This document shows, piece by piece, positions 4,208 through 51,598 of a stretch of 64,000 nucleotides of DNA. The stretch is from Amphiscolops sp. MND2022 (taxonomy: Eukaryota): NCBI GenBank assembly GCA_964187785.1, contig OZ076409.1:28398001-28462000 (forward strand), given 5' to 3'. The notes below the pieces were generated by a model. It searched no databases, was not told the origin of the DNA, and saw nothing but the letters and a program-made list of their open reading frames with translations. Within the stretch, counting starts at the first letter, position 1; the number at the start of each line of letters is the position of its first letter. Position numbers and translations under genes: made by a program.

Positions 4208-4820
4208 TGTCGCAGGCTGCCGCATGCAATGGAAACTTGTATTCTATCTCTTACAACAACTACAACACTCTCCCTCGGACGATCCCGCTTGACTAAGGAA
4301 AATAGACGTGCCGTCCAAAAAGAACTGCAAACTTTGAATCTGGAACATTAGTGCTTTCAATTTGTTTTTTAAAACATGCTTGTAAATCGAATATAGTGTT
4401 TTTTTTCACGCAAATATTTGATACATTTGAAGATAATTGAACACCAAGGCGTACAGGTAAAGGAAACGTGTTCAAACGTTTCTTCGCCTGTCGCTGCGGG
4501 TAGGGCGTCCACTATGCATTTTATCCAATCAGCGGCGTTCACTTGATTAATGCTATACTTGATTGAATAAAAGGCCAAGTACGGCCATTCTACTTTGCTA
4601 GCGTACCACAGAGGGCGGCGGGACACTAAGTCTCAATTTGGACTAAAGGCGCTGTTTAGTAAATACCGCATTATAATTGAGCAGTAAGTTTTGATTATTT
4701 GATGATTTATTCAATATGTGATTTGTCCTGAGAATGTACAAATACCCAATAGTCATGTAAAATTTTATATGAAAAAGACAATCACATAAATCATGTAAAA
4801 ATCATTAAATTATACCCGCT
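4208..4820 (+). repeat. 5' LTR remnant of copy 1 (U3 part only; a deletion joins it to mid-gag)
   Basis: Starts like the 3' LTR at 16324. Gag homology resumes abruptly at about 4821 without PBS or gag leader. Confidence 0.7.
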
Positions 4821-5578
4821 TATGCAGACATTCAGGAACATAAACTCAAACAACCGTCAAACCTAAGAGGACGTGTTGGTCATATTCCGGCGAAAATATG
4901 TTAGGCCGGAATCACAAGCTACGGCAAAGCATAAATGGCATAGGCTCTTTTTCGATCCTATTACCATGGAAATGCCCGATTTCTTAGAAGAACTGAAGCA
5001 AGGCACCGAGAAAGCCTTTGGTGAAAACGCAAAAAGCATTATTGACAGCTTGTTGTATGCTAAACTGCCTCCAAAGTTGAAACAATCTGTCAACATGGCC
5101 TGTCTGCAGAATGGGACATATGAAGAGATCGTAGCTCATCTTGAAAGAGAGCAAGAACTCAACGCATTGAGGAATCAGATAACCTACCAATTTCCACAAT
5201 GGCCTCAGCGTCCTCAAGTAGCCGCATCTTGTTGTCCAATGGCCTTGAAACCAAAAAGGATGCCCAGTGCTCTTACTGTAAAGCAACAGGCTATTTCCGG
5301 AAAAACTGTCCAACGTTGAAGAAGAAAGAAATGGAGGAGAAACGTGGCAAAAGACCGCAGCGTCAAACATACCCACCATGTGAAACGTGTGAGAAAAAGA
5401 ACCACCCAGATGAAAGATGTTGGCAAGGCGCTGGTGCTCATCTTTTCCCGAAATGACCCAACTTGACGATAAAGCAAATGATGCCTCAAGTGATAAGGGA
5501 AAATCCAAGAAAGCAAATAATGCTGAAATGTCATCGTCAGGCTAATCAAACTCAAAAAAGCCTGATTCAAAAAGCTAA
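4821..5578 (+). pseudogene. gag: gag remnant, copy 1
   Basis: FRRKYVRPESQATAKHKWHRLFFDP...YAKLPPKLK, homologous to copy 2. Two zinc-knuckle-like motifs, CSYCKATGYFRKNC and CETCEKKNHPDERC. Frameshifted. Confidence 0.85.
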
Positions 5579-8500
5579 TTTTGCCACGACTCCAAACACA
5601 TAACTACATGTTGGTCCGACAGTATGTCATATCAGATACTCCGACAATCAAACTTCGCTAATTTCTCAAAGACACAAATGGCACCCCCTCAGTTGTCTGG
5701 CAGCAACAGAAGGAAAAAGCCTATATGAAGACTTATAAAATAGTACATAACGATTGCCCAGGCTCATACTATGAAATGGACTATACTAAAGACTGTGAAA
5801 CTCAATTTAGCCCTTTACAATTGGTCGAAGATTATAACTCTCAAAACATTGACCCCGAGAACGGAAAAAATTTGTATTGGGGTGACAAACTATATGATCA
5901 GGAAAATGTACAATTTAGTCATGACGACTATCCTTCAACAGACGACGAGGACGATCCAGCGATAAAGACAAAAAACTATCCGGGGCCCTCCTTGAACTTT
6001 GGCAGCCAAATTCAGAAGCGAATACCCCGGAGGAAATAGAAAAGTTTCATAGACAAGAAGTGCGCCAGGCTACAAACAGCCTCGTAGACGAGGCGGCCTT
6101 TTTGCACGTCCTCGTCACTAAGGAGGGAGAACCAGCAAACATTCCCTTTTCAACAAACCTTGGTCCTCAATTTAAACGACAGATGCTATACTTCCCGATG
6201 GACTTTAGGGAATTAACCTTAGACGGCTTAATAGACACTGGCCGCACATTTGCACGTAAATGCGTGGATGAAACACACGTGTTCACGTGTGCAACTTGCA
6301 TTGAATGCAGTTTATACGTACTATGCACGGTAGAGCTCAGTAATGATAACTAATTATTTATTGAATCATTGTTTACTTTGACTGGTTTATGATGCTGTGG
6401 TATGAATTAGAATTAAAATGAACACTGAGTTTTGAATGCATATAAACATGGTGTAAGTTAGTCAAAACTTTGACCACATTCCACTTTTCGGAAGTATAGG
6501 AGTCCCTCAATTTGCAAAAAGTGGAAGTTAGTCAACGTTTTGACTGACTTACGAAAAAGAGTATTTTTGGACTAACTTCCGCTTTTTTCTAATTACGTGT
6601 TTTGACTAACTTACACAATTTTCCATTACGCGCGTTGATTTTGCTAAACCGTTGAAGCATAGACCGTCTTGACTAACTTACGCTGAATGACCATTTTACC
6701 ATTTTACTCAGATTACGCTGCTTGACTAAAGGCAGCTTACCGGTACGTGTATCGTAATGGCGCCCACTCCAGTGCAATACCCGAAGCAGACCTCAGGAAA
6801 AAACGCCTACTAGCGCCTCAATTCATAATCAAAGAGGGACCTGCCCCATTATTTCAAATAACGGTCGCAAATGGAGATTTAGAATCACCAAAGAGTACCG
6901 TCGAATTAATGTTTCAAATGAGAGACATTGAGTTTCATGAACGTTCTATAGTAATGGAGAAAATTTCCAGCCCCATAATTGAATAATGTTCCTTCAATTG
7001 AACCACACAGTCTTAGACCTGCGCCAAGGTCTCCTCAACTTTCCTTATTTCTCAATGCAACTGACCACGACCACAAGTACTCAAATGTAATGGAACCCCT
7101 ACTCAGTCCTGAGGACGTGACGATTCCACCAAATGACCACGCGGTCATTACCATACAATCCCAAATTTATGCAGAGAACGCAGTCACAGGAATATTACAA
7201 CCTAGTGACGTTTTGCACGAAGAAGGCGACGTAACATTTTGCGCCGCATTTGTCACACTAAACGAAGGGACTATGGGCATACGCGTCAACTATTTCATTG
7301 ACCAACCTTACAAACTTGAAAAAGGATTGCATTTCGCAACTTTCTAAGTGATGACTCCTGAGCAAATGGAACACGTCAGACCATCAGACCCAGTGTCTAC
7401 CTGGCACTTACTAATCGAAAACCTAGAGGACGCTGTCTACTATATCAGCAGTCTTTTCAAAGCGAATCGGAACATTGACCAATACGAGCATTATTGGATC
7501 CTGACACATATACAAAAACAGCTACTTAGAGAAATGCGCAACTTGGAAGAAGCGGAAAAACTGAATCCGAAGGACGACGAAAAATCACGTCGCAAGCTTC
7601 TTAGCAATTTTGACTGGAAGGACTCAGTGCTATAACAGCATGGAATCATAGGAATTGAATCGCTATTAGTAGAAATCCATGACACCTTTGCACGTCATTG
7701 ATTCGACATTGGAATAAGAATTCACTGTCAAACTGACCGCTAGGTATGATTCACCAGCATACAGTCAAAGCTTGCATTACCCGATTAACTTAGTGGAGGA
7801 CATATTGGTTGAACTGGCGTCACTACATAAATATGGCATCAATTCAACTCTGCCATTTTTTGAATACGCGAGCCCTATATTTGCGCAGAAAAAACCCAAT
7901 GGGAAACTCAGACTACTAGTAGATCTGAAAAAGATCAATAATCTTATCTCAAGACGATTATATCAATAGTAATCATCCAGTCAGTACCCTGACTGACGCC
8001 GCGCAACATATACCCGGAAAGACACTTTTCTGTGAACTCGACTGTTCACAGGCCTACCATTGACTTCAAATGGCGGACCAAAGGTCTAAAACAATGCTAG
8101 CATTTAAACTTGCAAGCAGGACTTTTGCCTATAGAAGATTGACTCAGGGACTCAGCAGAGCCCTATCGGCCTTCTCCAGTTTCCTGAGGAAATACCTCAA
8201 ACGAGTTATAAAAGCATATCAATGCGCCCAATATGTCGATGACATTGACATTGCAGCTAACGACGTCGACCAACTTTTTAGAAACTTGAGGGCGACCTTT
8301 CAATGCATCAGAGAAACAGGATTAAAACTAACGATGCACAAGTGCAATTTCGTAGCAACTGAAATTGATTTCTTGGGGGAAGGACTATCACCCCAGAGAG
8401 TGCCAAGCCCCCCCCCCCAAAAAAAAATTACGAACTTCTTGGAAAAACAATCTTCCCGAAATCCAAGAAGGCCTAGCAACGTTATCTTGGTCTCCTAAAC

Positions 8501-11060
8501 TACTACAGAAAGTGTATTCCGAGATTATCAGAAACACTGGTGCCATTCTTCCAACTCCTTAAAAAGGATGATAAAGTCCTAGTGACCACGGAGCTGGTAC
8601 AACAATTCAAGGAAATCAACTAAGACCTTGACAGGTGTAGCCAGCTAGCCTTAAAGCAACCATTGCCAAACAAAGAAGTGGTCTTGATGTCAGACGCGAG
8701 TTTTACGGCAGCCGGTTATGCCATTCTGATTGAAAAGGACCCGAATCAAAAGTTCTTTCTGCCAAAAATTCCTATGCGCACATAGCCTACATATGAAAAA
8801 TCTTCACTACTTCGCGGCTGAAAAAGTCGATATATGCAAAGAACTTTTAGCCAAATACTACTCCTTCTAGGAGTTTGGACATTATTTCTGGGAGACACCT
8901 AAACAGAGAATTATCCTTACAGACAATAACTCGGTCACGTGGTTCTTCGAGACGAAAATAATACCATCGCCATTCTGGAAAGCGTGTGATTACGTGATAC
9001 AATTCAGTTTTATCTTAGCGCACATTCCAGGGAAGAATAACACAGCGGCGGACTATATGACCCGTATGGAAATGAATCCCAACGAGAAATTGATCCTAAA
9101 AATAGGGGATGTTGAAACCAGACCCATCAAGGTATATGTCCAATCGGCCGGCGTGTCCTTGAAAGCAACTATTCTTAACTGAAGAGGGCAATGAAACAGA
9201 AGAACAAAATTGGAAGCGCAAGAAATTGTCCAAAGAGGGACATAAAGTCGATGAGACCGTAATACAAATTGATGCAATATCTGAAAACAATGTGGATGAA
9301 ATCAATAATTTCACCCAGAAACTGTGACGAACAAATCAGATACTGTTGGAGCAAGCTAGAAATCCAATTTTGCTCCAATTTAAAGCAAAAATCCAGAAAG
9401 AAGAGTATTCCGAAGAAATTCTCCAACATGAAATTCGGTACAATCAATATTTGAATAATCTTGACTGCACAGTCCTCAAGGACAAAATAATAACACGGCA
9501 ATACTATGATGAAACTGGTCAAATCAAATATCATCAAATACTACTGCCCAAGCACTTGCTGAAAGAATTGCTACACGCCCTTCATGGCACGGCACACAAA
9601 CACCCTGCCATATCTGGGAAGTTTCAGGAAATTCGCCAAAAATACTACTACCCAGGGATAGAAAAGCATGTCAAAAGAAGGGTAGTAAGCTGCAAATTTT
9701 GTGCTAAAGACAAACATGTCCCAAAGAACGCAAAAACGCCTGAATTGCTTAATTTGCTTGAAAGGGACAATGGTCCAGAAAATGCCATGCAAATAGATCT
9801 GCTACCAAATATACCTATCAGTGGCGGATACCAGTCAGTGATGATGGCAATTGATGTTTTTTCAAAATACTTGTTCGCTGACACGCTAATTGAGGCACAA
9901 GCCGCAAATGTAACCAAAGTGTTAAATGATATCATGACAAGGCATTCATACTTGCCAAAAACTCTCCTCACGGACTAAGGGTCTGCCTTTACTTCAACGA
10001 TTGTAGCAGAAATAACTCAAATTTTGGGCAAAACACTTAAATGCGCTACTACTAAACCACCGCAGACAATTGGCAAGTTGGAGAGGACGCATGCCTCTCT
10101 CGAAACGAATTTGAAATTTGCCGCAGGGGAATTTCGACGCCAATGGCACAAATACCTGCCATTAGCTGTGCTCAATTATAATACCACACATCACTCTGGC
10201 ATTGGATATGAGCCAAGCAAGGTATTTCATGGACGCATCCCCCACAACGTCCTGGACCATAAGTTAGGGAACAATCTATTAAAAACCCTGAGCCAACGAC
10301 TGAATTTGCGAAAGAAGTACAACAAAGGACGCAAATCCTTATTGAACAAACAAAGAAAAAGATTGTGCAGTCGTACCTAAAATACAAGGACTATTATGAC
10401 CGGAAAGCCAAAGTTGCTCCGCTTCAAAAAAAAGGATTTTCGTTTCATTCTACAATCTAAAACCGACAGCCAAGCACCAAAAATTCCATTTAGAGACTGT
10501 TGATTGGCCCTTTTGTCATCCACAGAGTCCTGTCAAAACGACAATTATATTGTGCGTCGGCTAAGTACTAAAAAAACGCAAATATTACACCGAATGAGAC
10601 TCAAAAAATTGGGCCTAACACGCCCTTACAGGCCAAATATTCCAGTAAAAATAACAATCTGACGATGAGATAGTAATACCGCAAGACGACTTGTAGACTA
10701 TTTCATGGTAAGTGGATTTTGATTACGAAAAAATTGACACAAGAAAAGACAATTGGCCGGATACGGCCTTATGCCTACCAAACGACGCCGCGAGCGGCGA
10801 AGTTGACGATTACGTCACCGAAGATGAACGCAGCAGCGAGAGGAATGAAAGTGATGTCACTGAAAATGAAATACGCACGAGACCGGCCAGCAGCCGAGAT
10901 GTGACGTCTCCGTTGATCGAACTGCCTGATACGGCTCAAGATGAAAATGACGTCACCAACGAATTAAAAGATGAGGAACTACCTTCAAAAGGAGGCGCAC
11001 ATATGTACATATCTTCGACCTAATTCTACCCCCAACTTGACTGATGAGAACATATACTAG
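5579..11060 (+). pseudogene. pol: pol remnant, copy 1 (protease, dUTPase-like segment, RT, RNase H, integrase)
   Basis: LIDTG|AHSS (split by an insertion); YASPIFAQKKPNGKLRLLVDL; CAQYVDD; LMSDAS; HGTAHKHP...CKFC; QIDL, LLTD, LERTH. Many stops and frameshifts. Confidence 0.92.
6243..6757. mobile_element. ~515-bp non-autonomous insertion in the protease active-site codons
   Basis: Splits GAC ACT GGC|GCC (DTG|A). TGGC is duplicated at 6239-6242 and 6758-6761. Internal GACTAACTTAC/GTAAGTTAGTC repeats occur in both orientations. TIRs unclear. Confidence 0.65.
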
Positions 11061-11140: not shown

Positions 11141-14100
11141 TTATAAATAAAGAATTACTTCAACAAAGGACAAATTGTATAATATTTGACAGAGAAAAGC
11201 CAATGATGAAAGATGAAGGTACAAGTTTAAAGAACAATTGTACAAAATGTACATTTGGGACTTAGAAGTAGTCTGCTCGGACTCTTCCGGGACTTTATCC
11301 TTCTTTGCAGACTCTGTTGACCCAAAAGCAGTTTTCCGTTTCCCTTTCCCGGGGGACCACTTGTGTCGACTGCTGGTAGAGGGTGAACTTGAACCGGAGG
11401 CGAAACGACTCGAGGATGCTGCTTTAGGCTTCTGTGTCATGGATTTATGCTTTATGCAAAGGGTTCTGTAGAAATTGGCCTTGCCAAATACATCAACATG
11501 GGTCCAGGGATCACCTGCTACGTTACCAGAATTGAACTGTTCTTCTAGCTCACGAAATCTAGACAATGAACTCTCGTTAGTACAAACTGGAATGGAGTTT
11601 GGAACTCTAACCAAATAGAACTGTGCTGATAATATGACGTCTCCCTGCCTATGTGAATCAACATCTTGGAACTGAATGGAGGAAGCAAAGGGTTATCTTC
11701 AGTAAGGCACATGCAGCTTATTCGGAAAAGTCGGTAGAGATGGAGACGATTTCTGAGTTCAGGCATTGCCGACAATAGATCCACAATGTCGGTAAATCCT
11801 GCTGGGGAGTTTTTCAGGGAGGGATACATCTGGCGAGAGTGACCCACGAATTCCAGATACTAATCACGGCAGTCGTTTTTAGAAGATCCACCCAACCAAC
11901 CTCGGAGGCTGAAAATCTGGTATATTGTCGCGAAGCAAAATGTAGCTTGTTCTAAAGGTAGGATCAAGAGAATGTGGAGATCGAAACTGGCTATCACCCT
12001 GACGATGTCGGCATTTAAACTAATGTGGCCGAGCAAAAATACCATATAGCCCCGTGCCTTTGCAACGAACTTTTGTTTTGTGTCCTCAACCAATTCTGAA
12101 AAACTGGGAAATGAGCTTTCCCTGTCACTGTTGTCTCTCTTCACTTTGGCTGCCTCATCAATGTCCAATTTCAACCTCAATATGGTGAGCAAATCCCTCG
12201 AAGATAATTGACTAAGCAATCCATCGAACAGTCTAGATTTCCCACTAGGCTCTTCTCAAAACAAACGTTGTCTAAATAATGAAATGTTAACAATTAGAGA
12301 ATTCAACCTCTAGGTCCTTTGACGAAGTGGAACTCCTAGGAGAACCCTACTCAACCATGGAAATTGAAAGGAGATTTACTTACAATCAATAGTACACGAT
12401 CCTTCCAAAGAATTCCAATTTGATTGGGAAGAAGTCATCACTGATGATCTGCTACTCCTGGTTCTGAGGCTGAAAGGAAATAAGATTTGTCAATGGTTTT
12501 CAGGTCATGAGCATATAACGAACCATCTGGTAACAATACTGGTCAATGAAAATTCAATAACTTTGTTTTTAACCCCTTGCATCTCGTACCCATGTGCAAT
12601 CTTGGTGATGTGATCCCAGAAGGGCTTCCAATTAGTAATTATCTTGGAACAGATAATCGGTATGGTTCGAATCCGCAAGTCACAACTTGATATGACCTGG
12701 AAGCAACAATGACGTGGAACTGGTGTATAAGACACAACTAACTTCTAATCGTTGACACCAATACTAACTTTGGCTAGTTCAGGGGTATTACCGATTCAAG
12801 GCTCATCAAGAATATTGGCTAGATAGGCCACCAGGTACTTGAGTTGGATGTAGAAGTCTATCCGCCCAAACACGATTCCCTCACGTTTTAGCATACGCTT
12901 GTGTAGTGACAAGACTTTTTAGCCGAAAGGGTATGCAGTTTCCTTCTTCACCGAGCAGACTGCTCAACCGTCCGGAGGACTTCGTAATTGCACCCTGACA
13001 TACAGACAACCTGAGGTGCTGTCGAGAGGAAAGACAAGATTCTGGCTATCACAAGCAGCTGGTTTCGGACACGAATGGAGGCCAAGCTACAACGACAAAG
13101 TTGGAATTAGACAAGATCGTCTGATTTCCAGTAGCTCAAAGATGCGATGCCATGGCTCCCTTGTGGCTCAATTTCAAGAGAAATCAACACTGTCTCTTTC
13201 AGTGATTGGGCTACGTCTTCCATACCACGTAAGGAGACATGATGGAAGATAGCCTGAAACAGTTTAGATCCCTTAAAATCATGCAAAATCGAATGGTACA
13301 CAAAGGCTCACAGTCACCCTCACTTTAGCCTGGACTAGGAGCAATGGCCCGACAGGCCTCGGTCCAACTCTAGCTTCCCTTCTTTCGATGTCTATTTCTG
13401 TGGAAGGGGCATTGGTGTCCGAAACGTCACCTTGGTTAAAAGAAGATGCTCCGATTTCTTCATCGGACGCTAAGGCTCCGCTGGTGTACCCGTCAATGGT
13501 GTATCCTTCGCTCTCGGTTTCCCATTCAGAGTTTGTGGGGACGCCTCTAGTTGGATTTTCTCCCCTTATGAGAGTCTTTCTAAAATGGCCAGGTGTTTGA
13601 CCTCTTCCCCCATACACTGCCTGAAGAACAAGCGAACGCGTGCAAAGACAACTTGACAGTTTCGTCCGAAATGGTTTTGAGGACGGCGTGGATATGCGGT
13701 TCGCTGTATTCAATCGTGGAAGGTCCTCTGGGAAGCACGGTTGGGTAGACTTGAAAAAATGTTTCCGGAGAACGGTTCGGCCATTGGCAGAAAGTTGCTC
13801 TGGAAATTTGGTTTCTTTGGTTTGGGGGATGACATGGAAGCCCTTAACCCCTTTGTTGACAGCCTCACGCTCTTCTTCTGGAGCTGAAAAGAGGTCAGAA
13901 TCAGAATTCGCTATGCTGGAGGTTGGCCTGTTTGGCAAGCCATCGGCACAGGGGCTGCTATACAGGTCTTCTACCTCACTTGCATCGGTCTCAAAATAGT
14001 TCTTCTCTCGTTCGTGTGACCAATCAACAGGGCCCATATCAAACTGACTGGAGGTCCCCTATAACTCAGAACCGATTTATTGGGTATCAGTCCGACCAAA

Positions 14101-14434
14101 CTCAAGGATTTTCGACACTGATAAACTGTAAGGGCCAGGCTCAGTCCTGTCTTGTTGAGAAGCCTGATTAGTTGCGGGCACGAAAGTAATGTCATTCTAG
14201 GGACTAAGGCCGCCAAAGAACGCAACGTTTGGTCTGCATAAGCCGAGAGCCTCTCCTCAGCATTACCACTGCTAGAGGAAGGATTGGACGCAGGACGAAA
14301 AGCCGTGATCTGTTCTCTAGACTCAACTGGGTCCTCTTGTGAAGTTTCAGAAACTTCATCCATCGGTTGTGAATTTTCAGTCGGATGCTCTTCAGATGAC
14401 GTTTCTGAAGGAAAAGAAGAAAATTAGCGGACAA
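11141..14434 (-). pseudogene. Antisense, intron-containing cargo gene of copy 1 (hAT-transposase-like; BED region apparently deleted)
   Basis: ORF fragments 13279-14363, 13107-13253, 12505-12696, 11860-12219, 11545-11847 and 11141-11614 are colinear and homologous to 45864-46918 (-) and 58200-61000 (+). GT-AG introns at 13254-13311 and 12697-12768. Confidence 0.75.
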
Positions 14435-15587
14435 ACTTCCTTATTTTGAGATCCCATGTGCCGCTGTTAAAACTTCTGGAAATGAGATATATTAAAATCG
14501 AAACACGTGAAATATGTGTTTATTGGGCAGGAAGTACATGAACAGAAAGTGAGCCGTGATCAAGCCTATTTTTGTTTACATGAAATTGGGAAATCATCCA
14601 CCAGAAAAAGTTCGGGATAGCAACCAAGCAGATTGTGGAAAAACTGAGAAGTTGCAGAGCAGCGAAGTGTGAGGGCACGTACAGCTGGGGGAAAGTGCTT
14701 GACGCAAGGCAAGATGAATTGCCGGGACTGGAAGCCGACGGTGCACAGGAAACCGAAGGTACCCTTAGTATTGATGATGACTGCACGAGGTGTCCCAAAT
14801 AGTAAAGATGAAAGGAAAGATAGTTAAATATGGTTCAAAGACTAACTATCGACTAAATACAAGTGATGATTAAATACTGGATAATAAGAAAGAATTGAAA
14901 ATGGACAATTTGAATGACGAAATGGCAATGTGACAATATATCAAAATTGGATTTCGTGTCTTTACAGTTTGGTGTCAAATTTACAGTTATTTAAAATTCA
15001 CGCCGAAATGTTGATAGAGTTTGCCAGTAATATCTACATTACCCTATTTTATCTCAAAAACTTTGTTATTTCATACAATTATTTCATTACTTTTGTTATT
15101 ATTTCATTGTTTCACAGTCATATTATTTTGTTCCGTATGTGGAGTTTAACCCTTGGATGGCCATTCCGGAAAAGAAGAAACTTTGCTTCGATCTTATTGG
15201 ACGTTTCACGAGAAGCGAGACCGGGTGGCCTTCAACCATATCTTCACCTATTTGAGGATTTCAAGTAGCTATTGAGTGTTAATAAACACTCAGCGAAGTC
15301 CTCGATTCCGCCTTCAAGAAGCAAATACGATATTGAATGTCAACAATGACACGGCCGGCCGCCCATAAAGGGACTACGAGGATGTTGCTGAATATTTTAC
15401 CAAAAAGGGAAAGGAAAACCCGGAAAAAAGAAAAACGAAATTGGGTGAGTCTCCCGCGAATCTGAGCGAGGTAAACTGGCATTCACTCATTTTCGTTCCT
15501 ACCGTTCAGCTCACTACTTTTAACCTGAAATTCAAAATCTGCCCCGTACTTTCATTTCAAAATGTTGCGTAAAAAATACGAAGACGC

Positions 15588-16410
15588 ATGTCTGACTTGT
15601 CTGGATTTTTTCCAATGGACTTCGTGGGAGCCGCCCAATCTGAAAGAGAACCAGCCATCATTGACTTGTCAAGTGACTATGACGATCATATGGACTGTGT
15701 CAGCACGGACTGTGTCAGACTGTGTGTGATTTTTTCGTCAGACGAAGAATCAGAGAACATTGAGCTGATGGCCGGATGTGTAGAAAGACAACTAGCCGAT
15801 CCAATTCACATACCCACCACTGGGACAACAATGGCTCAAAAGAGGAGCGGAACACCTAGGCCAAACCAACCACCGTTCCCCACTTTTGACCGAAGGTATT
15901 TTAATCTCGGACGCGGAAACAGTTTATTAGCATTTGATAATAGGGTAAGGAATAACCACCCTTTTTACAATTGTCGCAACCTAATACCCCGAATGGATTC
16001 CCCGCTGTCTCCTTCTGTCGAAGATAGAAGACCAAACTACGGGTCAAGTGCGCCTAGTTGCTCCTACTCTACTGATACTGTCTCAGTGGAGTCAATCTCA
16101 AACTATTTCAATGGGATGGCTGTGTCAGAAACTCCGGCGCTGGTGAACTGTTCAGACTGTGTGGTCTGCGGAAAGTCAATCCACCAAATACAGTCGGAGG
16201 CGGTCGATGACTACTTAAACAAAACTGTGAATCCAGGCTAAACGTTGGCAGAACAGGAAGCAAGGAGAAGAGCCTTCTTGGATGGAATGTCCGCAGGGAC
16301 GTTGCTTCTCATGCCAGGTGGAGTGTCGCAGGCTGCCGCATGCGATGGAAAATGGTATTCTATCTCTTACAACAACTACAACACTCTCCTTGGGACAATC
16401 CTGCTTGGTG
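15588..16410 (+). pseudogene. ORF-X (unknown protein; acidic N-terminus, DCVVCG motif) running through the PPT into the 3' LTR
   Basis: ORFs 15588-16241 and 16245-16454 are separated by one in-frame stop. Homologous to 53083-53868 (-): DCxVC.G...QI...A...Y...RRR..L.GM..GT...P.GV.QA. Confidence 0.75.
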
Positions 16411-17263
16411 GGATTTCACTTTTGGTGGACAATCACTTTGAAGTCGACCCATAACCATGACGTCATTGTGGCTAAAAATAGTCGGTGCTATTTTTCGAAA
16501 ACCCTTCAGGCTATTTTCAGTAAATGACCCCAGTAAAATTGCTAGTCATGTAAACGCGGATATATAAACACCCGGGAACATAAGTCCCGACACAAATTGT
16601 TTAAACTACATACCGTCCAGTTAAACAACCGTTAAAAAGTTTTGATTTGCAAGACAAAGACTCAATTTGATTCTTCCCTCGTAACCATTTTTGATGCCTT
16701 CAACGAGGAGACAGGAAGCAAAAGCAAAGAGATCTAGTGAGATGGGCATGATGTATTATTTTGAGGACTTAGACGTGATGGTAGGGTGCGATAACAACAA
16801 TCAAATCGAAAGAGAATTTGAAGCTAGCGCTATTGAAGGATCGTCTGTTCAATATGACACTAAGTCTAACCTACCTGCAAGGGAAGATTTTTTCCAAGAA
16901 AATGAGTTTAGGAATCAGAACTATGGAAATAGTTTTCCCAGACATGAAAGCATTTTGGAATCGTTAGAAACTTTTGCAAATGAAGTTAACTTGAGATCAT
17001 CCCAGGAAATGGATTCTTCCATGCTGTCGATGGTAATTGCTCAGATCAATAGAGCCATATGTTCGGCTATATCAGATAGAGTCATTCCAGAAATACGTAA
17101 TATTGTGAGCTCAATGTCTTCATCAGGAAAGAGGGACACTGAGGCTGGCTCGTCCCCTAACAGCCAGGAAAATAGAGGAAGAATGGCTGGGTTGAAAACT
17201 AGAATTACAAAGAAGGACTCTATGTCTGTGATCTACGAGACACAGGAGACTTTGGTTATTACA
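16324..17263 (+). repeat. 3' LTR of copy 1 (internally deleted), with TATA (~16561) and gag-leader ORF from ATG 16694 (MPSTRRQEAK...)
   Basis: TG...CA termini. Start matches the 5' LTR at 4208. ORF 16691-17290 is homologous to the gag N-terminus of copy 2 (38642 onward). Confidence 0.88.
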
Positions 17264-18540
17264 AAAGGTATATGCCCTAATTCAATTTGAAACAAAATTC
17301 GTTCTCACAAAATTATTGAAGTGAAACGCGACTATACTAGTGACTTCCACACAAACATCCAAACTAGTTAAATAGTTCCTCAAAAATATGCGAAATCTTA
17401 AGGTGTCAGATTTTACCATTTGGCCCAAGGAACCTTTTGTGAGACTTTTTTTCGAAAATTGTTTTCTCACCAAAAGGGGCCTCTTCAATTTTTCGATGTT
17501 TTGCGAAAAAATGGATGTTGAAGAATCCCAAACGGTCCATTTCAGTTTTTTGGCATTTTAGACTTTGTTTCGAAACATTGTTAATGTCTTCAAAGGGTCC
17601 CCTTTCCAATTCAGTCACCTTTTCAGTTTTTATGGGTACTGTTCAGGCAAAACTGTTTTTTCTTATCGAAACTGAAACTTATCGAAATTGGAACTAGCTC
17701 GAAAAATTTAACGATTCTATTAAATTTCAACGCAGCTGCCTAAAATATTATTTCTAAATTTCACGGCAATTCAGATTCATTGAGTTTCACAGGCTTTAAT
17801 ATGCATTAATTCAGTTTTCCAATGTTGCTGAGACTTCATCAATTTTACCGCCATTTTAATTAATGCAAATAAATTTCAGTCACTTTATATATTTCAAAGA
17901 AACGTCAACCTCAGCGGGCGATTCAAATAATGGTTATTACATTAATTATTCATCAAAATGAAATTCTCCAAAGTTTTTCCGGACAGGCTCCCGGAATTTT
18001 CATGTTTTGTATAAAGTTAGCCTCGCACGCATGGAAGCAGCGTGAGAAACTTCCCAGCAAATTCAACTAAGTTTATTCAAGGTCACGAGTGACTGGATGT
18101 TATCTCTAGTTTCAATACGATTTTGTCTGTCAAATTTTTTTTCTATCATGCCGCTGCTAGTTTTTACGAGTTTTCTCAAGTCTCAACATTTGCAAGTTGA
18201 GAGATATAGGAACCCGATAACAATGATAGATCTGACTGTGAATATTTTGACGCCTTTTGGTTAATTTTTCACATTTTTGTTAAGTTAGAATTTCTCCGAA
18301 CTATATTATTCTAGAAACCTAACAGTTTTTTCCAGTTTTCTCTTTTTGGATCTTTATATCTTTCGGAAAACAGAAAGTGCGAAAAATGCAAAAAACTGCC
18401 AAAAAGCAAGATGTTCAAATGTTTCAAATGTTCAAAATGTTCAAATAAAAAAAACATTGCTAAGTAGATAAAATTTTCCTATTGCATCTCGTTGGATATT
18501 CACTCTCACGGAAACATCGAGCATTTGTACAAAAATTGAA

Positions 18541-37290: not shown

Positions 37291-39226
37291 TGTTGCAGGC
37301 TGCCGCCTGTGATGGTACGTCCGTGACTAATTCTGCAATCGCGCACGAAATAATACCAGGCACTTTGCCTACCTTTTAAATACAAACTACCAAACTTTAA
37401 AAAAAAACTCATATTTGCTTGTTCTTTTTCCTATTTTTATTTACCCATACAATGTTTTATGCATTAATGGAATTGTAATTAGTCTGTTAAAGCAATACAC
37501 TTTGGAAATATCCAAATCAGGCGATTGAATGATGTAGGCTAGTTCAATGTAAAACTGCTGAGATAAATGCAATACAAATTAGAAGCAACTGTAAGGCAGT
37601 ATAGGAAATGTGTTCAAGTGACGTACAGTGCTAATCCGAAAGCGTCACTTGAGCACGTCGTCCTAGCCAATCCTATTGCAGTATTAGTTCTCTTTATTTC
37701 AAGTTATCAATAATGGCCGAGTAGGGCCAGTTGCGTAATATTGCCACTTACAATTGATACTTTAGTCAAAGAGCCGATTCTGGCCACCTTATGTGAAATG
37801 AAAGTAGGAAATCAACCGCCCATATATTTGACTAATAATTATGTACCTGTACCTTTTATGATAAATTATCTTTTGTTCAGTACTAGTATGCAGTTTTGAT
37901 GATTAATTGCCTGTTAGGTCCTTTTGACCATATTTTAATATTAATTGTTCTTTGTTAGGCCATTGGTTCTATTTTGACCAAAACATGTAAAACGCAGTGT
38001 ACTCTTTTATTTTTATTGACGTAAATTTTGTCCTAAACCTCTGAATGCATTGAACGCCTTGTAAATGATTCAGGACGTCTATCTCAGGCTGTTCTGATTA
38101 TTTTGCCTATACCCCATTGGAAATGCAATAATAGAATAATTGGCCAAATTGGGCCTACTTCCATGTTGTATTTTACATTTAACCGTATTTGATGTACTCA
38201 GTCCTGTGTTTTAGCGTTCACGTGGCGGCACGTGCCAGCAATGCATATTTAGTGTATTTGAAGATGAAGTGTTTACATTCCTGAAGCAGTCACACCCCAC
38301 CGGTGATACGTGTGGTACTTGACACTATAGTTTGAACTTTGATGCCGCCCTTGACGCTAGTTATTTTATAGCTCCAAAAAACTAAGATGCAGTTGAAATG
38401 ATCAGGAGTCACGTGTTGTGAAATTGTTTTGATGAATTTTACCCACTAGGAATGTGGTCATGTGCATTTTAAGGAATTTGTTATTTACATTGAGAATGGA
38501 TGTCATTCATGAGGAAATATATATAACCGCTATTTTCCTTGGGATGACACAGTTTTTTAATCCGCTTACTGCTCAATTCAACCTTAAAATATTGTTTTCG
38601 AGCTAAGACTAATTCACTGTTTTATCTCGAGTTCCCTTCAAATGCCTACTACAAGAAAGCAAAAAAAGCTAGAAAATCCAGAGGAATTGAGGTTCTCTCA
38701 GATAAGGAAAATCTAGACATCATACTTGAAGAAAATCATTTTAGTAGAAACGAAAGAGATGAAAGCCTAAACAGCATTCACGCTGGAAGGTCAGAAAGCG
38801 ATTTAGGCGATGAATGTGAAACGAATGATGAGAACAGGTTCTTAAATCGAAGAAATGTCGGTACTAGTATTGATGCCGAATATTGCCAAAATTCGGCTAG
38901 TGGCGATTCTAGTGCAGAGATCAACAGATTGTCGATTGAGTTGAACTCGAGGTTATCAAGAGAATTAAATGAAATTATGAGTAGTGTTATCACCCAGATG
39001 CAAAGGGCATTTAGTAATGCAATCTGTAGTCAAATATTGCCTCAGATTCAAACTGCCCTTAGCTCCAGGTCGGACCATTTGACACAAGGTAGATGGAACG
39101 TTCTGTCTGACAGACCGGAAGTGAACTCCGAAAGGTTCTCCGATGAGAAATATAGAGAAAACTCAAGAAGTAAGCCAATTCATGATCGTCTTAATGATGA
39201 ATCTATAAACACTTGTGCATACGACA
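37291..39226 (+). repeat. 5' LTR of copy 2 (1936 bp; TATA ~38518; gag ATG at 38642)
   Basis: Starts TGTTGCAGGCTGCCGCCTGTGATGG like the other LTRs. Ends GCATACGACA directly before the PBS. Confidence 0.85.
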
Positions 39227-40332
39227 TGATGACAGGAGACAACGAATCTCCAATCGATGCTCCTGAGTTTCTCTCGGGACGAATGCCATCGAGAAGTCAT
39301 CTTCACAGATCCCATGATGCCCTCAACCCCCTGCTCGAACGACAATTTCAGCACAAGAAAGGACCGTTCCGGCCCTCGAACAAGACCCCATCAACAGGCT
39401 AGCTGATGTCTGGACAAGCATGCAGAATCGTCCAACAGCCCAACAGTTTACTATCCGCCGAGTCAACTCAAACACTATGACCTTAGACGGCAAAAGTGAG
39501 AAGTTCGAGCTGTTTGAAGATCTATTCCACACGATGATCAAGATGCAGCCTGATATATCCGAACAGAAGAAAATCAACCAATGCTCTACAAACATCCCGC
39601 AACATTAGCACAGCTAACCGACGAACTCTCGAGGACGTATTAGTCCTATTAAGACGGAAATACGTCAAACCCGAATTGAAGGCAACCGCCCAACACAAAT
39701 GGCACCGTCTGGTATTTGATCCAAATACGACAAAACTACCAGATTTCCTTAACGAGTTGAATCACGGCGCAAAAAAGGCGTTTGGAGACAACGTTCGAAA
39801 GATGATTGACAGTCTCCTATGCGCAAAACTGCCGCCAAAGCTAGAAAGATCAGTCAACATGACCAGATTGGAGAATGGCTCCTATGACGAAATCCTCGCT
39901 CATCTTGAGAGAGAATTGGAGCTTAACGATTTTGAAGAATCTGACGACCTACCAATGGCTTCAATGACTTCCACAGTCGCTAAAACCAAAACAGTCTCAT
40001 CCAATGCACAAATGAGTGACATTACATGCAACTATTGCAAGGAAAAGTGTCATATGGTCAAAGACTGTGAAAAATTGAAAATGAAAAAAAAAGATGCCCA
40101 ACAAGGCAAAACTACCGCGAAAAAAAACATATCCCAAATGCGGGACGTGTGGCAAGACGAACCACCCAGAGGAACGATGTTGACAGGGTGCCGGCGCACA
40201 TCTTAAACCTAAGCGCACTAGGCCCGAGGGTTCATCTGATAATAATCCCGACTCAAAAACCTCAAAACCCCACCAAAATCCAACATCATCCAACTCCCAG
40301 TCTTCCTCCAAGAAAGACGAATCAAAAACTAA
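38642..40332 (+). pseudogene. gag: gag, copy 2 (starts inside the LTR)
   Basis: MPTTRKQKK...; DGKSEKFELFEDLFHTMIKMQP; ATAQHKWHRLVFDP; knuckle CNYCKEKCHMVKDC and a second CGTCGKTNHPEERC. Frameshifted. Confidence 0.88.
39227..39238 (+). promoter_or_regulatory. Primer-binding site TG(A)TGACAGGAG, probably a mutated TGGTGACAGGAG; tRNA-Leu-like acceptor-stem complement (tentative)
   Basis: Lies directly after the LTR terminal CA and is absent after the solo and 3' LTRs. tRNA identity is inferred only. Confidence 0.6.
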
Positions 40333-43300
40333 CTTCACCACGACTCCAGTACGACCAACTAGACTCTGTTCGACAGTACATCAGATCGGACCCTCCAACG
40401 CAAACTTTCCACAATTATAATCAACAATTGATGGGCTACCCTTCGGTTGTCTGTTGCTGGCAGCAACAGATGGACAAAACTATCATCATTACCTATAATG
40501 ATACCTATTTGTTCCAAAAATCAAATCCTGTTTGGGACCCTGATTACACGCCTACCTACACTACAAGATTCAGGCCCATTCCCTTAATTGACGTCTACAA
40601 TCCAACATATATCAACCCAGACTGTGGCAGAGATCCCTAGTGGGACACCGAGCTCTATAACCAGGACCTAATACAATTCCAATATGTCTAGACGACATTG
40701 AGCACTATAATACAACAGTCCAGGAAAATCCTCCAATAACCCATAACAAAACAACAACAAGAGCGCTGATCGAAAATTGGCAGATGAATGACGGTACCAA
40801 CCATCCAGTGTTCCCAAATCCCTTGGGAACCGAGAATTCCGAAAACAAGGAGGAAACGACTCCACAATCATTACTCGATGAGAAACAATTCCAAAACGTC
40901 CTCATTCCCAAAGAAGGTGAACCAGACTGTATACCGTTGTCAACCAATGAAAACCTCAAATGCAAGAAGCGTATATTATATTTCTCAATGGACTTTGGGG
41001 AAGTGACCATAGACGGCCTAAAAGACACTGGGGCATTATCCAAAGCAATTCCTGAAATGGACCTCCGGAAAATTCGACTCCTTTCGCCACAATCCGTTGT
41101 CCGAGAAGGTCCGCCTCCGAACTTTCAAATCATGGTCGCAAATGGGCAATTAGCAAAATGGGCTTAGTACTATCGATCTCAAATTTGAAGTTGGTGACAT
41201 TGAGTTCCATGAAATCTTCATAGTAATGGAGAATTTGACGGGACCAATCATTGGACTAATGTTTCTTCAGAGAAACCATACAGTTTTGGACATGAGGCAG
41301 GGAATTTTTAATTTACCGTTCTTCTCGATGCAGCTCGAAACAGCTGATCACCGAAACTCCAATGTCTTGGAGCCAATCCTCAACCCGACTGAAATCACCA
41401 TTCCACCAAATGACAGAGTCCTAATCAGGACAAATCCCTTACTCTACCCTGAGAACACTGTCAGTGGCATACTGCAACCAAGCGATCCTCTACATGAAGA
41501 AGGCGACATTACCTTTTGCCCAGCTTCGGCAATATATCGATTCCTGTGAACAACTTCACAGATCACCCCTACAAACTCAAGAAAGAACTCCATATTCATA
41601 TTGCCAGTTTCTCTGTCATGATGCCAGAACAAATGAAGTACGTCAAACCGGTTGATCCGGCACCAAGAGCGGGCAGCCCATTATGTAAGCAGTCTCATCA
41701 AGACCAATAAAAACTCACAGAATACAGAAAATTCTTGGTTTCCAACTTCTGAAAACCCAAGTAACCCACAGGAGCACACACCAATCGAGAAACGAATACT
41801 ACGACTCTACAGGCCCTACAGGGCCTTGAGACTCAAGAATCGATCAAAGATGAGCAATTCATGGCAAAATTTCTAGAAAATTTTGATTGGAAAGATTCCA
41901 CTTTAACTACGGACAAAAAAAGCAAAAATTGAAGAACTACTAGAGGAATTCCACGATATTTTTGCCAGACACAGATTTGATATAGGCATGAATGAGGAAA
42001 TCAAGTTAAAAAAGACACTTAAAGACGATTCCCCAGGCTATAGTCAGAGCCTCCCAGCACCAATAAACTTAAAGGAAGACATCATAGTCGAACTAGCCAT
42101 GTTGCATAAATATAGAATAATCACTACCCTACCATTTTCGAAATACGCCAGCCCGATATTTGCGCAAAAGAAGCCAAATGGGAAACTCCGCCTCCTGGTT
42201 GACTTGAGAAAATCAACAACCTAATTTCCGATGATTATACAAACGAAAATCACCCCGTTAGTACCCTAGTTGATGACGCCCAGCATAAGGCTGGCAAAAA
42301 GCTCTTTTGTAAATTAGACTGTTCACAAGCGTATCACTGCCTTCAGATGGCCGACCAACGGTCAATTGAGATGCTAGTCTTCAACTTTGCAAGCCGTACA
42401 TTTGCCTACAGACAGTTGACACAGGGCCTTAGTAGGGCACTGTCCGCATTCTCCAGTTTCATGATGGAATACCTTGATAAAGTCATTAAAGCAGACCAGT
42501 GTGCTCAGTATGTGGACGATATCGGTATCGCAGCCAACGATGCCGACCATCTCATCGCCAACCTGAGAGCAACCTTCAAATGCATTCAGGAAGCAGGCCT
42601 TAAATTGACAATGCACAAATGTCATTTCGGTGCCACAGAAATGTATTTCCTTGGACGAACGATTACCCCACAAGGTGTCAAACCCCAAAAACAGAACGTT
42701 CAAAACTTTCTTGAAAAAACCAAAGTTCCGAAGTCAAAAAAGGCTTGACAACGGTTTTTGGGATTCTTGAATTATCATAAAAACTATGTCCCAAGACTTT
42801 CCGAACGCCTTACGCCATTCTACAAGATGCTGAAAAGTGACGAAAAGGTCCTAGTATCGAGAGAATTGGTTCAACAATTTGATGAAACCAATCGAGCACT
42901 AGACAATTGCTGCGACTTAGCCCTACAACAACCGGTTCCGAACAAACGAATTGCACTGATGACAGATGCAAGTTTTAGTGCTGCTGGATACGCAGTACTC
43001 ATAAAAGGTGACCCAAGTCAGAAAATCAGTTCAATCCGCAAATTCTATGCACCGGTCGCCTACGGATTTAAAACTTTTACCCCCGCCCAGATGAAAATGT
43101 CAATTTATGCAAAAGAATTCCTCGCGATGTACTTCGCATTCCAAGAATTGGGGCATATTTTCTGGGGCGCGCCGAAACCGGTCATCATCCTAACAGACAA
43201 AAAAGCCGTCACACGATTTTTTCAAACCAAAATTGTACCCCAAGCACTGTGGATTGCATGTGACTATGTGATTCAATTCAATTTCGTCATTGCGCACATA

Positions 43301-45504
43301 CCGGGGGCACAGAATACGGCAGGGGACTTTTTGTCCCGCCTGAAAGCTGTTCCGAAAGACAAATTAGTCATGAAACTCAGAGAGGATGTACAAACTGTAC
43401 CAAATGAAATAAATGTACAAGCAGCAGGAGTCTCACAGGAAGAGCAAATCTTCTACATGAATGATGACGATGAGATAGAAGAACAATTTTGGGCGAGGAA
43501 AGAGGCAATCAGGAAAAATCCCGCCATAGAAAAACCTGCTTTAACAATCCGAACGCTCTCCACAAATAGGGTTAAACAATAACCTGAAAAACAAGTCCCA
43601 TTACGGAAAACGAACCAGATAATCATCGAACAATCCAAAGATGCAGTACTTCTGCAATTAAAGACAAAACTCCTTCATGAAGATTACTCAGAAAAGTACT
43701 GCAACAGGATGCTCGTTACCGACATTATTCAAGCAACTTAGAACGAATTGTAGTCAAGGAAGAGATCCTTACCAGGCAATACTTCGATGAAACAGGGAAC
43801 GTAAAGTACCATCAAATTCTTCTCCCGCAGCACTTACTCCAGGAACTGCTCCAGTCCTTTCACGGGACTGCTCAAAAGCACCCTGGCACACCAAAGATGT
43901 TACAGGAGATCAGACAGAGGTATTACTACCCTAACATGGCAAAGTACGTTGAAAAGTGGGTAGAAGGGTGCGAACAATGCGCGAGGGTCAAGCGCGTCCC
44001 AAATGCAACAATTACGCCTGAACTACTTAGTTTGCCGGAATGGGACCTTGAACCCGAAGACGCCTTGCAGATTGACTTATTGCCGAATCTTCCCCAAGTG
44101 GAGGGTATGAAAATGTTCTAACTGCAATTGATGTCTCTCTCGATATCTGTTCGTTTATCCCCTTACGAACGCCTCAGCAATCAATGTAGCGAAAGTGCTC
44201 ATTGATATAATGACGAAACATGCGTATTTGCAAACAACGCTTATTACCGACAAAGGAACTGCCTTCACTTCCACGATTGTCGCGGAAATCTTGCAATTTT
44301 TGGGAATTACACTCAAAAGCGCAACAACTAAACATCCGCAAACGATCGAGAAATTGGAACGAACACATGCTTCACTGAAGACGAATCTAATAATTGCATG
44401 TTGGGAATATCGCAGACAATGGCATAAATATCTGCCATTAGCAGTTCTCATTCACAATACGAGCTATCACGCGAGCATTGGTTGTGAACAAGAAGAGTAA
44501 TCCATGGACGAGTTCCATACAATATGTTGGATCACAAACTTGGAAAAAATCCAAATGACCTGATCACTCCCAAAACTTAATTTGCGAAAGACGTCCAGAC
44601 CCGGACAAAACTCCTGATTGACAAAACAAAGCACAATACTATGCAATCCTACATTAAATACAAGGAATATTATGACCGCAAAGCAAAGCGGCACCACTGA
44701 AAAAAAATAGATTACTGTTTTGTACTGCAGCCAAAAGTGGGTCACCAGGGATCAAAGATCCCGTTCACAGATTATCGTTGCGTTGGACCATTTATAGTCC
44801 AGAAAATTCTACCTAATGAGAACTACATCGTCCACAGCCTCCATACAAATAAAACTCAGATCTTGCACCGAATTCGCCTTAAAAAGTTTGTTCCCAATCA
44901 ACAGCTTGAGGACAATTTCCGAGACGAGCGCTTGCAGCCAGACGAGAAAATTGTCATTCCGCAAGACAACTTATATACAATAACACGGGAAGCAAACTTC
45001 GGTGACCAGCTAGCTACACGAGGCAATGAGCCTATTCCGACTAGCCTGCCGAATGGCGTACAGCCGGTTACGGCAGAAAGGGATCCAAGTGACGCACACG
45101 AGAATGAAGCGGATTATATAATCACGACTGACAGTACAAATGCCGTCAACGGCGCAGTGCAAAATCAGAATGAAAAAATGAAAAGTGACGTCACCAAAAT
45201 AAATGAAGCTAGTGAAGCTGATAAAAATGAAAACTTAGATTGGCCGGATTCGGCCGTTTACCACAAAAATCAAGAACAATATTTTCCAGATCTGTCTGAA
45301 AGACAGGAAAACGATACAAATTTTTCAGAAGGAAATTCTGATAACGGAAACGATGCACAAAATTCTGCAAAAAGGGGAGTTGATATTATCGTGAGCGAAA
45401 TATCGCAAAATGATGACAGAAACGAGAGTCTGAGCCCTAAAAGAGGGAAATTTAACCTCAGGCCTAACCCTAACCCAAACTACTCAGAAGACTTTAGATA
45501 CTGA
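40330..45504 (+). pseudogene. pol: pol, copy 2
   Basis: KDTGA; CAQYVDDIGI; LMTDAS; HGTAQKHP...CEQC; QIDL, ITDKG, LERTH; VGPFIV (GPY/F); ends FNLRPNPNPNYSEDFRY*. Confidence 0.93.
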
Positions 45505-45789
45505 AAAGAATTGGATTTCGCCCAGAAACGAGCGTTATTTTGCCGTTCTTTTCTTCTATCTTTTTCGTTCTTTTTCTAGTCCCATGACAGACAGTATTTT
45601 CATTGAACTAGTAATGGGACGGCCGGAAAACCCCTTTGAACAGAATAAATACAGGGGTATAGTAGCGAAACAGAAACAAAATGAAATAAATAACACGGAA
45701 AGAAAGCAACAAGGTCTACAGTTTGGGTGTACATAGATACATATGTACATTTAGGAATTAGAAGATCCAGGGACAGTATCGTCAACTAC

Positions 45790-47305
45790 AGAAGAAGTCG
45801 CAGACCAAGACGCACTTCTTTCCATCCTTCGCCGTTTGGTATCAGTAGGGAGGGGCGTTAACGCTAACTCATCCACAACAGAATCTTTTGTCCACTGCGA
45901 GTGGAAGACTTCTTAGGGCCTGACAAAACGGCTCGATAGGAGGACTGCAATGATTTGTAGATTTTAGATCGACCAAAAGAATCAACATACTCCCAAGGGT
46001 CATAGGTGGGTGAAAAAGCTGTCCGTCCGAAGGAAGAGGAAAGGAGAGAAAGTTTCTCTAGATTAACATCATCATTGCATTGTGAGACTGAGCCAGAAAC
46101 TTGGCCCATGAAACTCTGACAGGGCAGTACTACATCCGTGAATCTACTCTGATGTCCCACAGTAGAAATTCTGTCAAGCGTGACATCGAGGTATGTAGGG
46201 CTGGGAGTAGTAATGCTCAGACAGCATAGCTTAAACAGGTAAAGGAGATGTTCTCTGTCCTGCAGGAAATCTAGGCCCATTAAGAACTCTATCAGGTCCC
46301 GGGTGGTACTAGTCAAATCGAAATCGGACCCATAACAGATTCTCAAGTGGTCGAGGAGCTGGGTATATTGGTCACGACAAAAGGATTCGTTATGTTTGAT
46401 GACCCCGGAACGAAGACAAAACTTTTGGTACAGCAAGTCAAATGTCGGAGCGCTGCATCCATGGGTTATCTCAACATATTGATCTGGTCGAAAGCTGCAA
46501 CACCTTTTATTATGTCTGCGCTGAGGCCTGTATGCCTCAATACTTCATTGATCAAGTATTGAAGGAAGTGGAGGCAATCACTAACAAAATCGGCTTTGAC
46601 CTTCTCAGCGGTCTTCAGTATGGCGGCCTTCTCCGATTTCTTCCCGAAGTGAGGCCCTTCAGCTTTGGCTTTGCTGGCATTGGCTACGTTGTTGGAAAGT
46701 TTGATACGAAGCATGAAATCTTCTGCTGTCATGAAGGTAGCATCACCCGTGTGGAAAGTTACTAGAAGGAACCAATCATTCTCTAGAGGGGCGGTATCAG
46801 GAGTGTAACTTCTGAGGCAGAGTTGATAAAGGAACCAGCTAGAGTCTCCGCACAGATAGAACGTGGCATCCCGCCTCTGCTGGAGATTCACCACAAAGCT
46901 AGACAAACCTACAAACACAGACTTAATCCTAATCAGGCCATTGGCGAACTCCTAACCCACTACTCTAAGGATACTAACTATCACTGACGTTCCGAGAGAA
47001 AAGCTCGAGCTTAACGACAAAGAATTCGTCGCAGATTAGTGTCCACTCGAAACTCTGTACCTGGAACATGAAACCCTAGTTAGAGCACCTGAACATCCAT
47101 ATGCAGCCTATAGGTGCTAGCATTCTACTAGGGGAAAGAGTCAAATTGATCGCAAATGAATGAAAGTTACTTACTCTGTCCCGAGACCCTTGTCCTACAT
47201 GCCGGGGAGCGTGCACCGTCAGGTAAAGGGTTACTGACTTCCCTTCTGTAACGAGCTCTCGGAAGAGTGTAGGGAGTCCCGAAATGTCCCATTTGCATGA
47301 AGTTA
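45790..47305 (-). pseudogene. C-terminal part of the antisense cargo gene, copy 2
   Basis: ADIIKGVAAFD, LYQKFCLR, CRDQY, HLLYLFKLCCL and YDPWEYVDSFG align with ADIVRVIASFD, IYQIFSLR, CRD*Y, HLYRLFRISCM and GDPWTHVDVFG in copy 1. Confidence 0.8.
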
Positions 47306-51278: not shown

Positions 51279-51598
51279 TTTGGTGTGAACTAGTACCAAT
51301 TGCAGACCTCTTTACTCGCGATCCGTCACTTGCTCTAATTCTTACTCATCAATCACATCCTTTTACCCTTAACACTCGTCCAACAGATTGTCAACATCAA
51401 TCAAACCACTTTAGATCCAAACACGCATCTCAGATAATTTCCATTTGCTCCTTGAAAAAAGCCCTGTAAAATAGCTTAGCAGAAATTCCTGTTTCAAGAG
51501 ACAGCCGAAGTAAACCAGGTTCATTTTCAGAAAGTCGTTTGGAAACTACCTTTGCATCCACCTCCAATCAGCAAGAGACTAATGTTTCTGACTTCCCA

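Follow-up and report, generated by a model that had tools for sequence, protein, structure and literature searches.

The prevailing view is that LTR retrotransposons purge their introns; introns that lie opposite to the genomic-RNA strand are not recognised in retrotransposition. The 64,000-nt stretch of DNA analysed here (the window) raises the question of whether an LTR retrotransposon can carry a gene with introns of its own on the strand opposite to gag and pol. A preliminary description, made from the letters of the window, had reported two such introns at shared positions in two divergent copies of an element.

Copies of the antisense gene within the window

The window contains two decayed Gypsy gag-pol regions on the forward strand, and four copies of the opposite-strand gene survive in it as remains (Table 1). 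In copy 3 the gene breaks off within exon 5, at about 60920, and the window contains no pol belonging to this copy; the pol located just beyond the window on the minus strand most likely belongs to the older, neighbouring fourth copy and not to copy 3.

The four GT..AG stretches first reported exist as written, all in phase 0 and with lengths of 58, 72, 93 and 120 nt, and three of them are genuine family introns: intron 2 of copy 1, recovered by both profiles and DNA alignment, and introns 1 and 2 of copy 3. The 58-nt stretch of copy 1 (13254-13311) holds up at one end only. Its acceptor is real, but its supposed donor at 13311 is exon-1 sequence, the segment 13339-13289 being 78-83% identical to the exon-1 coding DNA of loci L135 and L134 in another reading frame. 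A loss of approximately 630 nt near 13267 has taken the zinc finger, the true donor and most of intron 1 from this copy, leaving about 13 nt of the intron. With the copy-1 donor deleted, the match between its 'RVT/gt' and the 'RLT/gt' of copy 3, which had been read as a shared donor, is due to chance. The two introns proposed for the gene are real, but the total is four, and the two that were missed are found in copies 1, 2 and 3. Intron 4 of copy 1 scores below the profile threshold and its limits were set by eye against L134.

Several rearrangements are apparent in the same stretch. The 5' part of the copy-2 gene is replaced by a repeat present in inverted orientation at 31711-34004 and 47310-51201 (approximately 72-76% identical). 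Near-perfect tandem duplications of 1.77 kb and 3.4 kb lie inside copies (46656-50189 and 52391-59209), and a similar tandem duplication at L127-L128 doubles part of exon 1, in frame, in L127. Two LTR remnants, at 4207-4291 and 60917-60996, both end about 85 nt past the LTR start. Short tandem-repeat arrays are located at 62411-63278, inside the older fourth copy, and at 24336-25149.

Table 1. Element copies and gene features in the window, with one further small ORF from locus L047
Feature	Positions	Strand	Basis
Copy 1 antisense gene, decayed (stops, frameshifts, ~630-nt deletion near 13267)	11261..14457	-	tblastn with younger-copy exons, DNA alignment
Copy 1 intron 1 remnant, 3' end with real acceptor	13254..13266	-	DNA alignment
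Copy 1 intron 2, 72 nt, phase 0	12697..12768	-	profiles, DNA alignment
Copy 1 intron 3, 92 nt, phase 0	12470..12561	-	profiles, DNA alignment
Copy 1 intron 4, 112 nt, phase 1	12272..12383	-	by eye against L134
Copy 1 conserved pre-ATG motif, decayed form	14473..14481	-	sequence reading
Copy 1 gag (partial) and pol (PR, RT, RNase H, integrase), decayed	4786..10720	+	
Copy 1 5' LTR start, remnant	4208..4291	+	
Copy 1 small sense ORF, into 3' LTR (from 16324; LTR holds gag N-terminus)	15969..17290	+	
Copy 2 gag and pol	38677..45501	+	
Copy 2 antisense gene, exons 3-5 only; 5' part swapped for unrelated DNA	45754..47309	-	
Copy 2 intron 3, 114 nt	47061..47174	-	
Copy 2 intron 4, 70 nt	46909..46978	-	
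Copy 3 promoter-like motifs, upstream of ATG at 58422	58313..58403	+	
Copy 3 antisense gene, internal exon-1 deletion, cut in exon 5	58422..60920	+	
Copy 3 zinc finger	near 58960-59080	+	
Copy 3 intron 1, 93 nt, phase 0	59445..59537	+	
Copy 3 intron 2, 120 nt, phase 0	60025..60144	+	
Copy 3 intron 3, 72 nt (exon 3 having a small deletion)	60267..60338	+	donor by eye
Copy 3 intron 4, 69 nt, phase 1	60421..60489	+	
Copy 3 3' LTR (51599-52837) and small ORF, the latter doubled by 3.4-kb tandem duplication	51599..57420	-	
Older fourth copy, antisense-gene fragments	61160..63909	+	
Small sense ORF	15969-16385	+	
Small sense ORF	53087-54011	-	
Small sense ORF	56496-57420	-	
Small sense ORF, L047	2664-3641	-	

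Conservation of intron limits across the family

Judged from sequence, the antisense gene comprises five exons and four introns, which are likely spliced. Exon limits were set by eye in one locus, and protein profiles were grown from that locus with the dinucleotides unseen. The bases at the predicted limits were then read in 149 sequences, of which 129 had an exon-4 match and 113 passed all six windows. Because some loci repeat one place, counts were made on 57 representatives at 90% identity, a number that exceeds that of truly independent lineages since frameshifted old copies cluster alone; the loci had been sampled with preference for long exon-1 frames. Among these representatives GT is found at 207 and AG at 211 of 217 predicted intron limits. 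By intron, GT and AG respectively are present in 56 and 56 of 57 (intron 1), 53 and 55 of 56 (intron 2), 48 and 51 of 52 (intron 3), and 50 and 49 of 52 (intron 4), while the best dinucleotide at other intron offsets reaches 29-54% at most. Conservation of GT/AG in a multi-copy alignment, the check proposed at the outset, is therefore seen across the family and is not due to chance.

The introns are in phases 0, 0, 0 and 1, and taking them out restores the reading frame, as fits spliceosomal introns of the U2 type. They range from 39 to 211 nt, with an even spread modulo 3 for introns 1-3, while exon 2 measures 486 nt in most copies. The pyrimidine fraction ahead of the acceptors is 0.72-0.78, and branch-point-like words are modestly enriched (94 of 212, versus 53 on the reverse strand). 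Between subfamilies, dN/dS in the exons is 0.03-0.07 (25 pairs, non-independent), and in the same 25 pairs the intron interiors are 58-82% identical, a pattern of strong purifying selection on the exons and free divergence of the introns.

Probable precise loss and possible gain of introns

L101 lacks intron 2, L080 as well as L081/82/84/144 lack intron 3, and L043/45/101/102/112 lack intron 4, in each case with an exact junction; these precise intron-less lineages confirm the intron junctions. In an exon-5 tree of 34 loci they are nested among intron-bearing lineages, and intron 3 is absent in two separate clades, so that at least four losses are likely. Recombination of the element with cDNA of its spliced antisense mRNA is the most likely source of such exact losses. 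Lineages that have lost introns tend to have longer remaining ones, the summed length being 295-529 nt among 47 representative loci and 319 nt in L101, which has two introns. No decayed exon copies were identified inside long introns of the 47 loci, where two scores were marginal.

Database proteins were compared at the first junction; many of the 265 probably come from the host or a related organism and are hence non-independent. The end of exon 1 is reached by 156, and of these nine go directly on into exon 2, whereas in 138 of the remaining 147 the next residue is Val, which is what a GT donor would encode. The nine joined proteins were considered as transcripts and rejected, because those long enough to span exon 2, five in all, read through into intron 2 and so look genomic; the source records state no molecule type. 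A 1,334-aa open frame, considered as a processed copy, was likewise rejected, since it results from a tandem duplication within exon 1. The most divergent clade (P0164, P0180, P0266-P0270), for which no close member was found in the host genome, lacks intron 1 yet keeps intron 2, and intron 1 may thus be a gain.

Splicing, as first proposed, gains support from purifying selection confined to exons, from the lengths of introns 1-3 modulo 3 and from the precise intron-less sister lineages. We consider it very probable that splicing and translation of the gene take place now or did so recently.

The element carrying the gene

The carrier is a clade of Ty3/Gypsy LTR retrotransposons. In 20-kb stretches around younger copies the units measure 13.7-17.8 kb, typically 15.8 kb. 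Nine such stretches and one further element were surveyed and one stretch without an LTR pair was omitted, leaving nine full-length elements. Their LTRs are 1.1-1.75 kb long with TG..CA ends and are 98.2-100% identical within pairs, a PBS and PPT are present, and a 5-bp target duplication was detected by script in six of the nine. Gag precedes pol, and the pol domains follow the Gypsy order of PR-RT-RNase H-integrase (Pfam). The full arrangement is LTR, gag, pol, antisense gene, approximately 1 kb of intergenic sequence, small sense ORF and 3' LTR, with the antisense gene located between pol and the 3' LTR family-wide. Queries with the finger domain each returned 7,638-8,122 candidate places in the 1.07-Gb host genome, which are first-look places and not copy numbers. 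On these sequence features, the family is large and recently active.

Gag starts inside the LTR, so that 3' LTRs and solo LTRs hold about 200 codons of the gag N-terminus (L047-L048; window 16694-17182, 25093-25708 and 51597-52189). The small sense ORF is conserved and codes for approximately 170-330 aa with a Cys-rich motif. It faces the antisense gene head to head and extends about 30 codons into the 3' LTR; it has no Pfam match. A weak dUTPase-like match (E 0.0019, below cut-off) is located between protease and RT (L046:1-4281, minus strand, residues 355-439).

That the gene is antisense to the retroelement is borne out widely: in 57 of 64 loci of 10 kb, pol follows the gene downstream on the opposite strand, and no locus has the two on the same strand. 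Four of the remaining seven are cut-short loci with pol in the neighbouring sequence. L085, L086 and L142 are gene copies without pol within 4-5 kb downstream, and in L085 at least, intron 4 is seemingly interrupted by unrelated DNA. The stops of the antisense gene and pol converge, 131-276 nt apart in 40 loci. Trees of the gene and of pol have three deep clades in common and disagree within them (the pol tree being a quick one), and the gene evolves far faster than pol. As the deep clades are shared and reassortment occurs inside them, the gene appears to be an old, exchangeable module that has co-diverged with pol at depth.

In a scan of JGI metagenomes no locus was found. An earlier description was not found in the literature searched; one may exist, since subscription journals and Repbase lay outside that coverage.

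Promoter-like motifs and gene ends

All five exon frames are open in 33 of 47 representatives, summing to 1,201-1,347 aa. The motif TTCCGGAA lies 17-30 nt ahead of the ATG in 44 of the 47, versus 2 in exon-1 background, and further motifs are found near -109 (CTTGATCA, 39 representatives), -146 (AGGTTGGT, 30) and -79 (TACTTCCT, 26). TTCCGGAA resembles an ETS-type site; being palindromic, it could also serve the divergent small ORF. The fixed positions of these motifs support the earlier suggestion that the gene is transcribed from its own promoter, and an internal promoter is likely. After the stop, a canonical poly(A) hexamer is present in only 11 of the 47.

The predicted protein and its candidate descent

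The protein comprises a low-confidence N-terminus, a basic cluster (44 of 44), a finger, an RNase H-type core within exon 2 and a helical C-terminal half. The finger is BED-like, of the form C-x2-C..H-x5-H, and present in 34-35 of 35 sequences. Structures were modelled for two natural contiguous pieces, P0038 (exons 1-2, pLDDT 62.7) and exons 4-5 of L101 (74.5), with exon 3 absent from both.

The first model has a clear RNase H fold, for which the Hermes transposase occupies Foldseek ranks 1-4 (E 0.015) and also gives some of the longest alignments (108-144 residues). The second has Hermes 348-609 as its top match among 48,161 chains (Z 5.8, rmsd 7.2, 194 aligned). ESM Atlas neighbours of the finger-to-exon-2 part are hAT/ZBED families at 0.85-0.90, including zf-BED. 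There were no structural matches at E<=0.001, the Hermes Z scores of 5.7-6.1 are tied with or below those of kinases, actins and integrases, Foldseek found nothing with the second model, and for the C-terminal half ESM Atlas pointed to no hAT family. In four hhalign comparisons against alignments of host hATs, the probabilities were below 1%. Pfam matched neither hAT nor BED (zf-BED) in the protein, nor the C-terminal dimerisation domain PF05699, for which hhalign was also negative. PDB sequence searches yielded no family, and no full-length relative was scored over 709 aa, which is weak evidence. Descent from a hAT/ZBED-type transposase is nevertheless probable, because three independent weak pointers, none significant alone, agree with the right domain order.

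Catalytic columns were mapped from structural ranges, host hAT motifs and the Hermes numbering. None of 36 sequences has an Asp where strand 1 ends (column 29) or in the region of strand 4 (columns 82-90), and at the CxxH position a Cys occupies column 109 in 7 of 36. From this mapping no DDE triad is evident. A Glu in strand 1 is invariant and exons 4-5 hold several conserved acidic residues, including invariant Asp residues, which leave some catalytic role possible. We think it quite likely that the protein is without transposase chemistry. The gene falls outside the hAT transposons: it lacks the triad and the Pfam domain, and no terminal inverted repeats were identified around it in five loci. 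Several genuine hAT families are present in the host genome, with long single-frame transposases (L172-L191, chosen for long frames).

Possible roles of the antisense gene

The reading that we prefer, with moderate confidence, is a Gypsy clade with an antisense five-exon gene that has its own promoter, is spliced by the host and codes for a nuclear, DNA-binding, dead hAT-type protein regulating the element. The 5' LTR makes the genomic RNA, in which the introns are read backwards and stay unspliced, so that all four are copied into each new insertion; this much is established. The internal promoter would drive an opposite-strand mRNA, spliced by the host spliceosome like that of a host gene, and the product would be a nuclear DNA binder on the element's own DNA, aiding its transcription. 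Antisense orientation as the cause of intron retention, already proposed in the preliminary description, would follow from established retroelement biology. A nuclear regulator of the element is the most likely prediction for the protein; binding to the element's DNA, with support or protection of its transcription, is put forward more tentatively, as slightly under an even chance.

A role at integration is unlikely. The protein would bring the pre-integration complex into the nucleus or tether it to chromatin, guiding insertion, and a review contains a similar proposal for plant antisense ORFs (PMC7264820). The basic cluster and zinc finger suit such a role, as do strict linkage to pol and deep co-divergence with it, but it is not evident how a protein made separately would enter the particle, and a gene evolving so much faster than pol fits poorly.

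Less probable again is a self-limiting repressor like HTLV-1 HBZ, or an antisense RNA that regulates through double-stranded RNA with the genomic transcript. As the converging stops are so close and no poly(A) signal is conserved, the transcripts may overlap, and HBZ and APH-3/4 are described as damping 5' LTR transcription (PMC10186651). However, strong protein-level selection rules out a role for the RNA only, and a repressor sits badly with a clade that is very abundant and recently active.

It is very improbable that a DNA transposon or nuclease, nested in the retroelement and riding along with its catalysis intact, accounts for the gene. The RNase H fold, the invariant Glu and Asp residues and the genuine hAT elements of the host would agree with this, but inverted repeats are missing around the gene in the five loci, place and orientation are the same in 57 of 64 loci, and there is no Asp around strand 4. 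Finally, a gene that is never spliced, its introns being RNA signals of the sense strand or indels arisen by chance, is scarcely credible, for although summed intron length stays within its range even after losses, which may point to a spacing constraint, GT/AG is fixed while interiors diverge, lengths are not multiples of three, losses are exact and selection is confined to exons.

Returning to the spliced regulator, a fuller history can be sketched that is rather doubtful as a whole. A Gypsy ancestor would have captured a hAT gene in antisense and, with its active site disabled, turned it into a sequence-specific anti-silencing or trans-activating factor. Its four introns would have been kept by selection so that the mRNA passes as that of a host gene, with gain and loss of introns while mobile, and the gene would have driven the expansion to thousands of copies.

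The origin and role of extra antisense genes in LTR elements are described as open questions in a review (PMC7264820). The clade holds a whole host-like gene, with promoter motifs, five exons and strong selection, in many recently mobile copies. The gene has a candidate origin in another transposon class and makes unusual cargo in an element that multiplies through RNA. With dozens of diverged lineages and exact presence or absence of introns, loss and gain become directly observable, and tests of expression and function are made easy by the fixed junctions and the fixed motif upstream of the gene.

Comparison with known systems

The closest known cases are, in plants, the antisense ORFs of Grande and Retand and, in HTLV-1, the spliced hbz gene. 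Maize Grande gene23, rice RIRE2 and Retand have the same position between pol and 3' LTR, antisense orientation and family-wide conservation, and gene23 is driven by a promoter of its own and yields a nuclear product (PMC7264820; PMC11963269). The plant genes are described there as ORFs whose function is unknown (PMC7264820). The same 2020 review treats spliced antisense transcripts as still to be sought and reports no similarity to other transposons (PMC7264820), and the word 'intron' is absent from the main text of the Retand paper (PMC11963269). Unlike the plant ORFs, the family described here has four conserved introns and a protein of approximately 1,300 aa with a BED-like finger and an RNase H fold; TRP28 (PF04195), the Retand domain, has no Pfam match in it.

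HTLV-1 hbz and the APH genes of HTLV-2/3/4 are likewise spliced, antisense, protein-coding regulators in a retroelement (PMC10186651). These are retroviral, however, with a promoter in the 3' LTR and small proteins, as against internal promoter-like motifs and five exons here. Arabidopsis Ty1/Copia elements have spliced, multi-exonic antisense RNAs conserved across related LTR families, but these are non-coding and start in the 3' LTR (10.1101/2024.04.02.587720). The available parts of reviews of giant (PMC6431247) and rotifer (PMC5408684) LTR elements mention no such gene.

A different kind of likeness is to Penelope-like retroelements, which, as Arkhipova reportedly described in 2003, also keep introns, but are not LTR elements. 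Their introns lie on the sense strand. With regard to the protein, hAT transposases (Hermes) and ZBED/DREF proteins seem to share its predicted order of parts, from a BED-like finger through an RNase H core and a helical insertion to the C-terminal region. In contrast to hAT, there is no sequence-level match, no evident DDE triad, no inverted repeats, and a long low-confidence N-terminus. ZBED proteins have lost catalysis, and DREF is a domesticated hAT-type protein. Domesticated proteins of the ZBED/DREF kind are kept by the host, whereas the antisense protein is kept by a retrotransposon.
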